Positions 42,195 to 53,190 of a stretch of 64,000 bases of DNA are shown here, piece by piece (position 1 is the first letter of the stretch; each line of letters starts with the position of its first letter). The translations under genes were made by a program, and so were the position numbers. Below the pieces are notes generated by a model, which did not search any database, was not told where the DNA came from, and saw only the letters and a list, made by a program, of their open reading frames with translations. Origin of the DNA: Pseudomonadota bacterium (lineage in GTDB: Bacteria > Pseudomonadota > Gammaproteobacteria > Burkholderiales > Casimicrobiaceae). Location: contig JAFEDF010000239.1 in assembly GCA_018241785.1 (NCBI GenBank), forward strand, positions 26,144 to 90,143, written 5' to 3'.

Positions 42195-42689
42195 ATGGGC
42201 GAGATCGCGAAGCTGTTGCCGCGCGCCAACATCGTCACCGGCCTCGACGTCGCCGACAAGGCACAGTTCTTCGCGGCGATCAGCCAGGTCTTCGAGCATG
42301 GCTCGGGTCTCGCGCGGGCCGGCGTCGCGGCGAGCCTCGCCGCGCGCGAGAAGCTCGGCTCGACCGGCCTTGGCCAGGGAGTCGCGATCCCCCACGGCCG
42401 CATCAAGGGCCTGCGCGAGCCGGTCGGCGCATATGCACGCCTGCTCCATCCGATCGGGTTCGGCGCCCCCGACGGCCGGCCGGTGACGCATTCGTTCGTC
42501 CTGCTCGTTCCCGCCGAAGCGACCGAGCGCCACCTCGAGCTCCTTTCCGAACTCGCCCAGATGTTCTCGGACGCGGCCTTTCGCGAGCGCCTCGCGCACG
42601 CCGCGGGCGCCGACGACATCGCCGCACTGTTCGATTCGTGGGGTCAGGTCTTGCCTTTTGCCCCCGCGGGGGCAAAAGGCAAGACCTGA
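42195..42689 (+). CDS. ptsN: PTS IIA-Ntr protein, C-terminus extended by a palindromic repeat
   Basis: REKLGSTGLGQGVAIPHGR (phospho-His), HLELLSELA. The last 15 or so codons are encoded by the palindrome. Confidence 0.94.
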   Translation: MGEIAKLLPRANIVTGLDVADKAQFFAAISQVFEHGSGLARAGVAASLAAREKLGSTGLGQGVAIPHGRIKGLREPVGAYARLLHPIGFGAPDGRPVTHSFVLLVPAEATERHLELLSELAQMFSDAAFRERLAHAAGADDIAALFDSWGQVLPFAPAGAKGKT

Positions 42690-42695
42690 CCCCAC
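42638..42695. repeat. Perfect 58-bp palindrome (REP/MITE-like), followed by a 12-bp tandem duplication TGACCCCACCCG (42687-42710)
   Basis: GTGGGGTCAGGTCTTGCCTTTTGCCCCCG|CGGGGGCAAAAGGCAAGACCTGACCCCAC: two 29-bp arms with no spacer. Confidence 0.93.
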
Positions 42696-42713
42696 CCGTG
42701 ACCCCACCCGCGC

Positions 42714-43661
42714 ATGCACCAGATCTCAGTCGGCACGCTGATCGAGCACAACCGCGAGCGCCTCGGACTCGTCTGGCTGGCGGGCCGCGGCGGAGGCGAG
42801 CGCGCGCTGGTCGGCGAGAGTTCGCTGCGCCCGACGATCGGCCAGGTCGGGCACATGAACCTGATCCATCCGTTTCGCGTGCAGATTCTCGGCGCCGCGG
42901 AAACGGCGTGGCTCAACGCGCTTCCCGAGGACGAGCTCAAGCACTCGATCGATCGCCTCTTCACGAGCGAGCTCGCAGCGGTGGTCGTCGGCAACGGCGA
43001 GCCGGTGCCGCCGCACCTCGTCGCGCGCTGCGAGCAGCACGGCATCGCACTCGTCACGTCGCAGGTGCCTTCGCCGCACATCGTCGACGTCTTCCGCATC
43101 TACCTGCAGCGTGTGCTCGCCGAGTCGACGACGCTGCACGGCGTGTTCCTCGACGTGCTCGAGCTCGGCGTGCTGATCACCGGAGCTTCGGCGATCGGCA
43201 AGAGCGAGCTCGCGCTCGAGCTCATCTCGCGCGGCAACGGCCTCATCGCCGACGACATCGTCGAGCTCTACCGGATCTCGCCCGACACGATCGAGGGGCG
43301 CTGCCCGCCGGTGCTCCGCGATTTCCTCGAAGTGCGCGGCATCGGCATCCTCAACATCCGCACGATCTTCGGGGAGACCGCGGTGCGGCCGCACAAGCTG
43401 CTGCGCCTGATCGTGCACCTCGAGGACCACGGCAACGAGGCGTTTACCGACCTCGACCGCCTGCAGGTCAACGCGACCTTCCAGGAGGTGCTGGCGGTGC
43501 CGATCCGCAAGGTGACGATCCCGGTTGCGGCGGGACGCAACCTCGCCGTGCTGGTCGAGGCGGCAGTGCGCAATTTCGTCCTCAACCAGCGCGGCATCGA
43601 CAGCACGCGCGAGTTCATCGAGCGCCAGCAGAGGCTGATGGACACCGGGCACGGCAGCTGA
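42714..43661 (+). CDS. hprK: HPr kinase/phosphorylase
   Basis: HGVFLDV, Walker A GASAIGKSE, LIADD, LEVRGIGILN, PVAAGRNLA. Confidence 0.96.
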   Translation: MHQISVGTLIEHNRERLGLVWLAGRGGGERALVGESSLRPTIGQVGHMNLIHPFRVQILGAAETAWLNALPEDELKHSIDRLFTSELAAVVVGNGEPVPPHLVARCEQHGIALVTSQVPSPHIVDVFRIYLQRVLAESTTLHGVFLDVLELGVLITGASAIGKSELALELISRGNGLIADDIVELYRISPDTIEGRCPPVLRDFLEVRGIGILNIRTIFGETAVRPHKLLRLIVHLEDHGNEAFTDLDRLQVNATFQEVLAVPIRKVTIPVAAGRNLAVLVEAAVRNFVLNQRGIDSTREFIERQQRLMDTGHGS

Positions 43662-50560: not shown

Positions 50561-51424
50561 ATGACGTCCCACGACCGCCCCGCGCGCGCACGGCGCCCGC
50601 GCGGGCGCCTGATCGCGCTGATCCTCGCCATCGGCGTCAACCTGCTGTTCGTCGGCGTGCTCGTGTTCTCGGTCACCTGGCAGAACCGCGAGCCCGCCGC
50701 GGTGACCGCCGAGCTGTACGCCCCCCCGTCGGCCGACCTCACGCCGCTGCCCGCCGCGAGGCTGCCCGAGGTCGCGCCGCCGCGGCCGCTGCCCGCCCCG
50801 CCGCAGCTTCCGCCGGTGCCGGCACCCGCGCCGAAGCCGCCGCCTGCGCCGCCACCGGTGCCGTCGCAGGCCGACATCGAGCTCAAGGCGAAGCAGGAGG
50901 CTGCGAAGCAGCAGGAAGCGAAGCGCGAGGCCGAGCAGAAAGCGAAGCAGGAAGCGAAGCGGCAGGCCGAACAGCAGGCGAAGGCCCTCGCCTCCATGCA
51001 GGCGCAGGCCCAGCGCGAATTGCAGACGCGCGAGGATGCCGAGCGCCTGCGCAGGCAGGCCGAGGCCGAGGCGCAGATGCGTGCGCAGGCGGAGCAGGAG
51101 GCGCAGGCGCGCGCCCAGCAGGCCGCAGCCGCGACGGCACGAAGCCGCGCCGAAGCCGACTGGATCGACCGCATTCGAAGCAAGATCCGCAGCAACGTCA
51201 ACCTGCCGCCCGAGATCTCCGGCAACCCCGAGGCGATCTTCGACGTCGTCCAGCTGCCGACCGGCGAGGTGCTGACCGTCAGGATGAAGCAGTCGAGCGG
51301 CATCCCCGCCTACGACGACGCCGTGCAGCGCGCAATCGTGAAGTCGTCGCCGCTGCCACCGCCGCCGTCACCCGACCTCTTCCAGCGCGAGCTCGTGCTG
51401 CGCTTCCACCCGCACGAACCGTGA
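50561..51424 (+). CDS. tolA: TolA
   Basis: N-terminal TM, Pro-rich and then Ala/Gln/Glu/Lys-rich helical linker, C-terminal domain SSGIPAYDDAVQRAI. Confidence 0.9.
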   Translation: MTSHDRPARARRPRGRLIALILAIGVNLLFVGVLVFSVTWQNREPAAVTAELYAPPSADLTPLPAARLPEVAPPRPLPAPPQLPPVPAPAPKPPPAPPPVPSQADIELKAKQEAAKQQEAKREAEQKAKQEAKRQAEQQAKALASMQAQAQRELQTREDAERLRRQAEAEAQMRAQAEQEAQARAQQAAAATARSRAEADWIDRIRSKIRSNVNLPPEISGNPEAIFDVVQLPTGEVLTVRMKQSSGIPAYDDAVQRAIVKSSPLPPPPSPDLFQRELVLRFHPHEP

Positions 51425-51435
51425 ACGGCGAACGC

Positions 51436-51456
51436 GGGGTCAGGTCTTGCCTTTTG
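51436..51456. repeat. Second, single-arm copy of the ptsN palindrome unit
   Basis: GGGGTCAGGTCTTGCCTTTTG, 21/21 identical to 42640-42660. Confidence 0.9.
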
Positions 51457-53134
51457 GACGTTGCCGCTCTACACGCTCGAGAATCTGCAGCGCCACCCAG
51501 GTCCAGTCTGCGCGCTGCTCGACGACCTGCCGCAGCGCGATCGTGTAGTCGGTGCGGCCGGTGGCGAGGACGAGCCGCCGCCCCTCGCGATACTCATGCG
51601 TCGGCACGATCAGCGTGCGCGCAGACAGCGGCTTGTCGGGGCGCGACGGGGGCGGCAGGTAGAGCGCGTCGAAGCACGGGCCGAGACCGTGCGCATCGAC
51701 GCCATCGACCTCGATGCCCAGATCGCTGCGCGCTTCACGCTGCGCGTGCAGGCTGACCGCGACGACGCGCTCGGCGATCACCGAAAGTCCGGCCTCGATC
51801 TCGTCGCCGGCGAACCGGTTCACGCGGCGCACGACCCCCAGGACCCATTGCTCGCGGTTCGCCTCGCGCACGGCGACCAGCGTGCCCAGCATCAGCGACT
51901 GGCCAACGCCGCCGCCCGCGCAGATGCGAAGGCCGGCGACGCTGCGATCGCGAACCTGCCACAGCGACTGCGGAAAGCGCACGAGGCTTCCGGAGAGCGT
52001 GTCGCCCTCGTCGTTGGCAGCGGCGGCCGCGTGCGGGGCGCCGGCGACGGCGAATACCTCGATCTGGTCGGCCGGGGGTTCGGCCGCGACGGCGATGGGT
52101 CGCGCGAGCTCCTCGATGACCCGCGCCACGCCGATGCGGACCCGCGCCTCCTGCACGCAGCTGACGCGCGGGTCGCGGCGCATGTCGACATTCAGGTTCG
52201 GCGCGATCGCCGCGCGCGCTTTCTCGAGGATCGCCGCCCGCTTCGCGCCCTGCTCGCTCATCGGTCCCTGCTCGGTCGCGTCGGAGTTGCGCAGCGCGGC
52301 CAGCGTCACGTCGAGCTGCTCGGCGAGCGGCGTCGTGTCGAGGTAGCGCAGCATCGCGCCGGAGTCCTGGCCGGTCCGCCGCCGCAGCCCCTCGCGCCCC
52401 GCGACGTCGACGAAGAAGCCCTCCATCGTCTTCGGAATGGCGAGCAGCTCGAGCCGCCTGCCCCAGGCGCGAAACTGGGCGGCGACCCAGTCGAAGTTCG
52501 CCGGTGACAGATTGCCGCTGTTCAGCTGGTGCAGCAGCAGCACGTAGACGTATTCCTGCTCGACGCTCCAGCGCGCGCCCGCCGCGCCCGCCGCGGGGTC
52601 CTCGCGATCGAGCCCGAGCTCGGTGGCGCGCAGATAGGCGCGATGCAACTCGGACCAGCGTGCGGGAATCCAGTGCTCGTGGCGGCTGATGCGCAGCCTC
52701 GCGTCGATGCCGTAGTAGTGGACGAGCCGTGCGAAGAGCTGCGCGAGGCGCGGCTTCCAGCGCGCGTGCGCCGATGGAACGAGCGCCGCCTCGATCGCGG
52801 CCTGGTAGGCGCCGATGAACGCCTGTGCGAGGTCGAACGCCGCGGCCCAGAGGCGCTCGGCGATTCGCGGCGACGATTCGCAGTTGTCGACGAACTGCCG
52901 GACGAGCTTGCGCCGGTCGCTGCGCAGCGCCGCATCGAGATGCTGCAGCGCGTCGACCCGCGCGAGGTCGATCGGCCGCGCCGACTGGCGCATCGCGTCG
53001 AACGCGCGCAGGACCCGCTGCTGGCGCGCGACGAGGTCGAGCGTCGGCAATTCGTCGAGCCAGGCCGAGGCGGCGCGCACCGATGCGAGGGGGTCGGCGG
53101 CGGCCTGCGCGGAGGGCTTCAGGAAGGCGAACAT
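51440..53134 (-). CDS. Uncharacterised protein: helical N-terminal region plus PilZ-like C-terminal region
   Basis: About 564 aa from MFAFLK; RRDPR (RxxxR) and DRSVAG (DxSxxG) motifs followed by beta-rich GVVRR segments. Confidence 0.75.
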   Translation of the reverse strand: MFAFLKPSAQAAADPLASVRAASAWLDELPTLDLVARQQRVLRAFDAMRQSARPIDLARVDALQHLDAALRSDRRKLVRQFVDNCESSPRIAERLWAAAFDLAQAFIGAYQAAIEAALVPSAHARWKPRLAQLFARLVHYYGIDARLRISRHEHWIPARWSELHRAYLRATELGLDREDPAAGAAGARWSVEQEYVYVLLLHQLNSGNLSPANFDWVAAQFRAWGRRLELLAIPKTMEGFFVDVAGREGLRRRTGQDSGAMLRYLDTTPLAEQLDVTLAALRNSDATEQGPMSEQGAKRAAILEKARAAIAPNLNVDMRRDPRVSCVQEARVRIGVARVIEELARPIAVAAEPPADQIEVFAVAGAPHAAAAANDEGDTLSGSLVRFPQSLWQVRDRSVAGLRICAGGGVGQSLMLGTLVAVREANREQWVLGVVRRVNRFAGDEIEAGLSVIAERVVAVSLHAQREARSDLGIEVDGVDAHGLGPCFDALYLPPPSRPDKPLSARTLIVPTHEYREGRRLVLATGRTDYTIALRQVVEQRADWTWVALQILERVERQRPKGKT

Positions 53135-53190
53135 CGCGCGTCGGGGAGGACCGGTCGGATACAATTCGCAGGCGGGGGACAATCATTCCT

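Follow-up and report, generated by a model that had tools for sequence, protein, structure and literature searches.

A spacer-less 58-bp palindrome in the last codons of ptsN, probably a terminal-inverted-repeat dimer of a TIRYT/TIRtron element

The 58-bp palindrome that closes the ptsN gene of a Casimicrobiaceae bacterium (Pseudomonadota) is very probably a non-autonomous dimer of the terminal inverted repeats (TIRs) of a TIRYT/TIRtron element, which landed in the last codons of ptsN directly past Trp149. The parent element would consist of a gene for a RAYT-like Y1 HUH tyrosine transposase lying between inverted repeats of about 24 bp, and the dimer of two such repeats placed head to head with a short centre between them. 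PtsN would have lost its native tail of 2–5 residues and its stop codon, and gained 15 repeat-encoded residues together with the stop of the repeat. Since the right repeat carries the last five codons of the transposase and its TGA, any gene entered in frame would end in AKGKT and a stop. As in IS200/IS605 and RAYT systems, the transposase may have spread copies in trans by acting on hairpins of single-stranded DNA, and these copies would now be stranded in the genome. We know of no demonstration of transposition by a TIRYT for the class.

The palindrome at the junction of ptsN and hprK

We analysed a window of 64,000 nucleotides (GenBank assembly GCA_018241785.1, contig JAFEDF010000239.1, positions 26,144 to 90,143 of the forward strand), to which the coordinates below refer. 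The palindrome lies within the gene order lptB-rpoN-hpf-ptsN-hprK-rapZ, and the features at the junction are the following.

42195 to 42689, plus strand: ptsN (EIIA-Ntr), 164 aa; residues 1–149 native, residues 150–164 and the stop repeat-encoded
42638 to 42695, no strand: 58-bp palindrome with 100% complementary arms, read as one TIR-dimer hairpin of the family; arms GTGGGGTCAGGTCTTGCCTTTTGCCCCCG (42638–42666) and CGGGGGCAAAAGGCAAGACCTGACCCCAC (42667–42695)
42640 to 42660, plus strand: left arm, conserved 21-mer GGGGTCAGGTCTTGCCTTTTG, opening with the TIRYT TIR motif GGGGWSAS
42646 to 42689, no strand: 44 nt absent from the orthologous site of the relative G473 (TGGGGTC/CCCCAAACCGCATG) in an alignment of the two
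42661 to 42672, no strand: copy-specific centre CCCCCG/CGGGGG, itself palindromic and different from the other family copies
42673 to 42693, minus strand: right arm, the same 21-mer; the plus strand ends GCA AAA GGC AAG ACC TGA, or AKGKT and a stop
42687 to 42710, plus strand: 12-nt tandem duplication, TGACCCCACCCG twice, each unit comprising the outer 7 nt of the arm and 5 nt of flank
42714 to 43661, plus strand: hprK (HPr kinase/phosphorylase; PF07475/PF02603), beginning 24 nt past the ptsN stop

An inverted-repeat computation across the window gave two arms of 29 nt with 0 nt between them, in agreement with the claim of an earlier note on this DNA that a spacer-less palindrome stands at the end of ptsN. 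The Pfam match of PtsN to EIIA_2 (PF00359, E 2.6e-28) covers residues 7–147. The codon of Trp149 occupies 42639–42641, GQVLPFAPAGAKGKT is then read from the palindrome, and the TGA stop (42687–42689) falls within the right arm, so that both the tail and the stop are repeat-encoded, as had been proposed. The 12-bp duplication, with exact units at 42687–42698 and 42699–42710, and the start of hprK were likewise found at the coordinates previously claimed. As the 21-mer of the arm matches three times in the window against none in 100 shuffles, and 88 times in the genome against none for the reversed control, a chance origin is excluded.

There is next to no probability that the palindrome arose in sequencing or assembly, as a fold-back chimera formed at a repeat. 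Several contig ends of the assembly (C161, C191 and C102) do fold back through hairpins, with a perfect outer mirror of 28–30 nt at most 70 nt from the end, and short-read contigs of other samples break within the palindrome. However, the ptsN copy lies at least 29 kb from either contig end, and the identical, complete 58 bp is also present in another sample, on a JGI metagenome contig of 3.68 Mb (99.76% identity over 6.9 kb). Four further contigs, assembled from other sequencing runs, have their first bases within the palindrome or shortly past it and agree with its right half. These same-species contigs, retrieved by an exact-protein look-up with HprK, dispose of the fold-back artefact against which the earlier note had cautioned. 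The hairpin family is itself a main cause of the fragmentation of the assembly into 262 contigs, which break mostly at hairpins, and mirror flanks near contig ends are artefacts. Hairpins were seen at many contig ends (e.g. C161:29-90, C191:65-128, C132:31014-31077 and C102:45-153), some of which fold back over 12–30 nt.

The 12-nt unit occurs once in two other assemblies (L074 and L075), and twice in the window and three more (L076–L078); the species therefore includes strains with and without the duplication. The instability that the earlier note had expected of so long a palindrome was not evident at ptsN, where the repeat is stably inherited across strains, although the relative G473 seems to have lost several hairpin cores. 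A search with the single model SbcD_C (PF12320) gave no match in this 99%-complete genome, and an absence of SbcCD, if true, could explain the tolerance of spacer-less palindromes.

The predicted RNA fold comprises a 27-bp stem and a 4-nt loop, with a minimum free energy of -84.7 kcal/mol over 141 nt, compared with a mean of -51.7 for shuffled sequences (z = -7.95). A consensus scan of 42400–42900 returned 0 intrinsic terminator sites, and the stem is followed by CCCCACCCG, without a T-run; with no U-tract past the stem, the hairpin is therefore not an intrinsic (rho-independent) terminator. The Rfam search for known RNA families gave only sub-threshold matches to generic hairpins (miRNA precursors). 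The stem may act as a stable RNA hairpin in the ptsN-hprK transcript, where it could protect the mRNA upstream against 3' exonucleases or serve as a substrate for a double-strand RNase, altering the ptsN:hprK ratio.

The repeat family, its transposase and related systems

The arm is not confined to the two copies at ptsN: its 88 matches in the 3.49-Mb genome (up to 3 mismatches), 66 of them exact and 44 on each strand, bear out the earlier proposal of a genome-wide, non-autonomous palindromic family. These arms form about 35 inverted pairs of 51–93 nt each and 18 singles; a few of the pairs are one locus counted at two overlapping contig ends, and the copy number is about 30–35 hairpins. The arms, of about 24 nt (GGGGTCAGGTCTTGCCTTTTGCC), are nearly invariant among the copies of the genome. 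The hairpin centres, of 9–51 nt, differ in sequence and length in nearly every copy, yet are self-complementary, and six copies, including that at ptsN, have no unpaired centre. Nested or tandem groups of arms are found on contigs C102 and C153.

Beyond ptsN, five coding-type ORFs (codon-position GC of about 0.75/0.5/0.85) end at the TGA of an arm, as KGKT or KGRT and a stop. The window holds a further arm of this family.

51436 to 51456, plus strand: single arm of the family; the minus strand gives RVERQRPKGKT and the stop of a 580-aa ORF (51440–53182)

The 580-aa ORF is one of the five, and its codon-position GC (0.76/0.49/0.88) is typical of coding sequence. This arm begins 11 nt past the stop of a plus-strand ORF (50561–51424), and together with the next 22 nt (43 nt in total) it recurs at the start of contig C135 (2–44).

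We identified, in many other genomes, a plus and a minus arm 890–1060 nt apart that enclose a single ORF of 283–295 aa. This ORF begins MARPLRIEFPGA.YHVT.RGD and matches the IS200-like Y1_Tnp family (PF01797) above the cut-off, with E values of 1e-11 to 1e-14. The HUH motif (HYH) and the tyrosine region (RYVELNP) are visible in the transposase of one such genome (L065), and most of the 32 loci with a transposase homologue have arms at one or both ends of the gene. The ORF terminates inside the right arm, as AKGKT or AKRKT and a stop, and PtsN ends in AKGKT because the right arm natively holds the last five codons of the transposase and its TGA in the same frame. At one intact TIRtron (L066, G162:C333), we observed four to five tandem units of caagaa plus GGGGTCA in the left flank (about 440–520) and repeated TGACCCC units in the right flank (about 1440–1560); repeats of the terminal heptamer are therefore found beside the transposase gene as well as at hairpin copies.

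The gene that the earlier note had suggested might be found flanked by the repeat, a Y1/HUH transposase of IS200-like, RAYT type, is thus present in many other genomes and, here, as a broken relic. A profile search of the 99%-complete genome gave no match to PF01797, and tblastn with an intact TIRYT found only a C-terminal fragment, followed by one arm, on a 1.1-kb contig (C251:1-453). On the 3.68-Mb contig of the same species, the relic locus (L079:4322-4880) lies between a monothiol glutaredoxin gene and spoT/relA. The relic is frameshifted, and lacks residues 1–67, with the HUH motif HYH, and a stretch of 37 residues that holds the catalytic tyrosine (RYVELNP). To judge from its sequence, the only transposase gene found in the species is a dead relic without the HUH and catalytic-tyrosine regions, a reading limited by the division of this genome into 262 contigs, but the 3.68-Mb contig has the same relic. 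The element is probably now immobile in this genome. Compared to the 3.68-Mb contig, the relic on C251 is short of a further 100 nt or so between CGACCGCT direct repeats, and the relic itself therefore varies between strains. No transposase homologue was detected in the nearest repeat-bearing relatives, G473 and G014 (87% and 92% complete).

The same evidence bears on the possibility of a MITE of the classical kind, derived from a DDE-type insertion sequence and having TIRs and a target-site duplication, an origin that we consider highly improbable. Such an element would share the terminal inverted repeats of 21–24 bp, the short length (51–93 bp) and the lack of coding capacity, but we found no direct target-site duplications across the copies, whose flanks are unrelated or inverted (mirrored), and the only gene between full-length arms encodes a Y1 HUH enzyme, a DDE transposase not being seen.

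By its sequence features, the repeat belongs to the known but little-studied TIRYT/TIRtron branch of the RAYT world, rather than to a new kind of system. TIRtrons are RAYT-like TIRYT genes flanked by long TIRs, which share the consensus GGGGWSAS (also given in PMC6006769), sometimes overlap the 3' end of the gene, and form moderately abundant families of single, dimeric and grouped copies (Di Nocera, De Gregorio & Rocco 2013, BMC Genomics 14:522, PMC3733652). Similarly, a Y1 HUH gene stands between long TIRs in other genomes, with a one-armed relic only in this one; the arm opens with GGGGTCAG, corresponding to GGGGWSAS, at its outer end; the TIR overlaps the 3' end of the transposase gene; and TIR copies are dispersed in moderate numbers as singles, dimers and clusters. 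Most TIRYTs fall in subclass 2.1 of TnpA_REP, with a C-terminal HTH, and no repeat families were reported around subclass 2.1 genes (Quentin et al. 2018, PMC6006769). The transposases of other genomes may have an HTH-like C-terminal extension (residues 240–290), where the matches to HTH_23, HTH_28, Sigma70_r4 and HTH_Tnp_ISL3 all lie below the Pfam cut-offs; in contrast to that report, genomes with 60–88 arm copies exist here. A search of the searchable literature for the exact 21-mer gave no hit, nor did we find described for TIRtrons an arm identical across bacterial classes, palindromic copy-specific centres, mirrored flanks, or duplications of flank plus GGGGTCA.

REPINs and RAYTs associate a Y1 transposase with dispersed inverted doublets (Bertels & Rainey 2011, PMC3116915; Nunvar et al. 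2010, PMC2817692). The present family resembles them in its single-copy Y1 transposase, whose flanking repeats are dispersed as hairpin-forming inverted doublets, and in that these doublets are non-autonomous, lie mostly at gene ends and far outnumber the transposase gene. A classic REP unit is, in contrast, an imperfect palindrome with a GTAG (or CGTC) tag, whereas direct reading of the 21–24-nt arm found neither GTAG nor an internal stem reaching 4 bp, and the hairpin arises only as a dimer of arms that are not self-complementary. The arm-flanked ORF scores 79.6 and 75.9 bits with the NCBIfam model REP_Tyr_transpos (NF047646), for which the cut-off is 80, and the family is patchy in the genus (4 of 80 genomes) rather than clade-wide. 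The suggestion in the earlier note of a palindromic family tied to HUH/RAYT transposases was correct as to the Y1/HUH link, but an arm that lacks both self-complementarity and a GTAG tag has its place in the TIR-flanked TIRYT/TIRtron branch and not among the classic GTAG REPs.

Rickettsia palindromic elements and Neisseria Correia elements are palindromic repeats known to intrude into coding sequence or to provide a stop. GTAG REPs can also give TAG stops (PMC3733652). As in these cases, a small palindrome here overlaps the 3' end of a host gene, adds residues and gives the stop; the difference is that the stop and the last five residues are the C-terminal codons of the transposase itself, and different host genes therefore acquire the same KGKT ending. 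With the IS200/IS605 elements (IS608, ISDra2), the family shares the Y1 HUH catalytic type and hairpin-forming ends, although in IS200/IS605 these ends are subterminal hairpins and not terminal inverted repeats.

The repeat is sparse in the genus and scattered beyond it. Any arm at all was found in only 4 of 80 other genomes of the genus (23 arms in G473, 10 in G014, and one weak match in each of two more), and at least one arm in 60 of 401 genomes sampled from the order, with 78, 63, 33 and 30 arms in arm-rich genomes of other families. At least 114 stretches in a named genome collection contain a perfect match to the 21-mer, and the hosts among the matches listed include Rhodoferax, Rubrivivax, Thiobacillus, Ferrigenium, Marinobacterium, Marinobacter, Pseudoalteromonas, Rhodospirillales and Mariprofundaceae, with a few MAGs from outside the Proteobacteria. 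The arm-flanked transposases are 44–65% identical to each other, and the arm differs at 0–2 of 21 positions; for all this divergence of the enzyme, the arm is constant across Beta-, Gamma-, Alpha- and Zetaproteobacteria.

Arm-rich genomes usually carry the repeat as a 53-nt hairpin, whose loop of 3–5 nt varies between copies. Subfamilies of the arm carry compensatory changes in both arms (GCC/GGC, GAG/CTC, GAC/GTC), for example in genome G039. The loops of the 53-nt hairpins in G191 and G039 are often C-GNA-G (GAA, GTA or GCA) on one strand. C-GNA-G is a very stable type of DNA triloop. Both these loops and the compensatory changes suggest that the repeat functions as a hairpin of single-stranded DNA.

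Age of the ptsN copy and comparison with the closest relative

In 24 of the 24 genus genomes examined, PtsN ends 2–5 residues past Trp149 (e.g. WHGNP, WEPAA or WQPE and a stop), and neither the hairpin nor the tail is present in any, settling the question that the earlier note had raised over PtsN orthologues. Among the genomes compared, the repeat at ptsN is shown to be lineage-specific.

The closest relative found, G473, is 86–91% identical at the locus and reads TCA TGG GGTC/CCC CAA ACC GC ATG. It keeps only the outermost bases of the element (GGGGTC/CCCC), and removal of the 44 nt from the window gives approximately the same sequence. The G473 junction (TGGGGTC/CCCC) was considered as a clean pre-insertion target and set aside, as insertion here versus deletion in G473 cannot be polarised from it. 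A deletion footprint in G473 is nevertheless favoured, because its PtsN uniquely lacks a stop and because remnants with variable endpoints occur at other loci; the ptsN insertion would therefore predate the split of the two species. The ptsN of G473 (L209 = G473:C122, about 1940–1990) reaches hprK without a stop and continues for 13 codons, with the tail WGPQTACASSPSAR and a stop, overlapping hprK by about 30 nt, whereas all other relatives stop before hprK. The relative G014 has GGGAACCCA at the ptsN site, and given this sequence, a target site resembling the ends of the element is possible.

We additionally compared 20 other hairpin loci with G473. Three hold orthologous full hairpins in which the locus-specific centre is kept. 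About nine (ten with ptsN) hold only terminal remnants in G473, and eight are empty without trace. Several of the remnants break exactly after GGGGTCA (GGGGTCA/flank; GGGGTCA-AGC-TGACCCC; /TGACCCC; GGGGTCAGG/CAAGACCTGACCCC), and mirrored flanks co-vary between the two species, for example TCTGAT..ATCAGA versus ACTGAC..GTCAGT. Many copies of the family, probably including that at ptsN, appear on this comparison to predate the split from the nearest relative. Mini-remnants with a deleted core are also found in this genome: GGGGTCAGG/CCTGACCCC (C167:13330-13347), with mirrored flanks, and GGGGTCA/GACCCC (C130:5515-5527).

The three orthologous hairpins, whose arms carry 13 substitutions over 126 nt in G473 and 0 here, though the transposase is dead, argue for selection by the host. 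On that account the hairpins would be functional elements, acting in mRNA stabilisation or processing at gene ends or as putative sites for host proteins, with arms kept by selection, and the ptsN copy would be a maintained regulator of the ptsN-hprK junction, which is compatible with a transposon origin. The identity of the arm across classes, where transposases are 44–65% identical, the position of copies at gene ends, several of them supplying stop codons, and the very stable predicted RNA stem fit this account as well. Yet a repeat carried by so few other genomes of the genus is dispensable, most copies are lost or degraded in G473, and the conservation of the arm across phyla is more simply explained by co-evolution with the transposase, whose coding end lies in the arm. 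We judge host selection unlikely as the explanation.

Ends and centres of the hairpins, and the spread of the family

We identified tandem duplications of the outer 7 nt of the arm plus 5–7 nt of unique flank at 10 of 28 left ends and 8 of 28 right ends, compared with 2.7% expected. The 12-mer at ptsN is one such end duplication, and several include the stop codon of the neighbouring gene. In 5 of 28 internal copies, unique flank is mirrored over 5–16 nt across the hairpin (0.3% expected). Taken with the G473 comparison, these features suggest that the DNA breaks at a defined point after GGGGTCA and that some copying is templated by the hairpin. Such a break, placed here on the strength of the remnants and end duplications, resembles what is seen in IS200/IS605 elements, which on excision leave behind a fixed motif of the target or left flank (TTAC, TTGAT). 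Outside full arms, the bare heptamer GGGGTCA is not over-represented (328, against 70–589 for controls of the same composition), nor is the mini-palindrome GGGGTC..GACCCC (4, against 0–5 in controls). The variable centres were also considered as native target hairpins bracketed by two arm insertions, an explanation that was rejected, as the eight trace-free empty sites of G473 hold no such hairpins.

Two observations count against the TIR-dimer origin in its simplest form: the arms are perfect in old copies, which is unexpected of a stranded neutral repeat, and the centres differ from copy to copy, which is unexpected from copy-and-paste off one master element. As a tentative and, in our estimate, rather doubtful extension, the TIRYT family may move in a single-stranded, IS200/IS605-like way, with a reusable GGGGTCA and with old arms maintained beyond the life of the transposase. 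The enzyme would cut exactly after GGGGTCA and leave the heptamer behind as a reusable target, and DNA synthesis would be primed by the 3' end of the folded hairpin, with the hairpin's own flank as template. Such a mechanism would account for the palindromic, copy-specific centres, the mirrored flanks (with the stops of neighbouring genes) and the duplications of 5–7 nt of flank plus GGGGTCA. Some process or selection that persists after the transposase is lost would preserve the arms of old copies. To our knowledge, the mechanism by which hairpin repeats spread is unsolved even for the REPs of E. coli.

The repeat, very probably a TIR dimer, explains the odd C-terminus of PtsN in this genome, and places a stable hairpin between the nitrogen-PTS regulators ptsN and hprK. 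It also accounts for a KGKT ending common to several unrelated genes of the genome. More broadly, the family documents the little-studied TIRYT/TIRtron branch, in some genomes with 60–88 copies of the arm, and the break after GGGGTCA, the mirrored flanks and the palindromic centres provide testable clues to how hairpin repeats may be spread by Y1 transposases.
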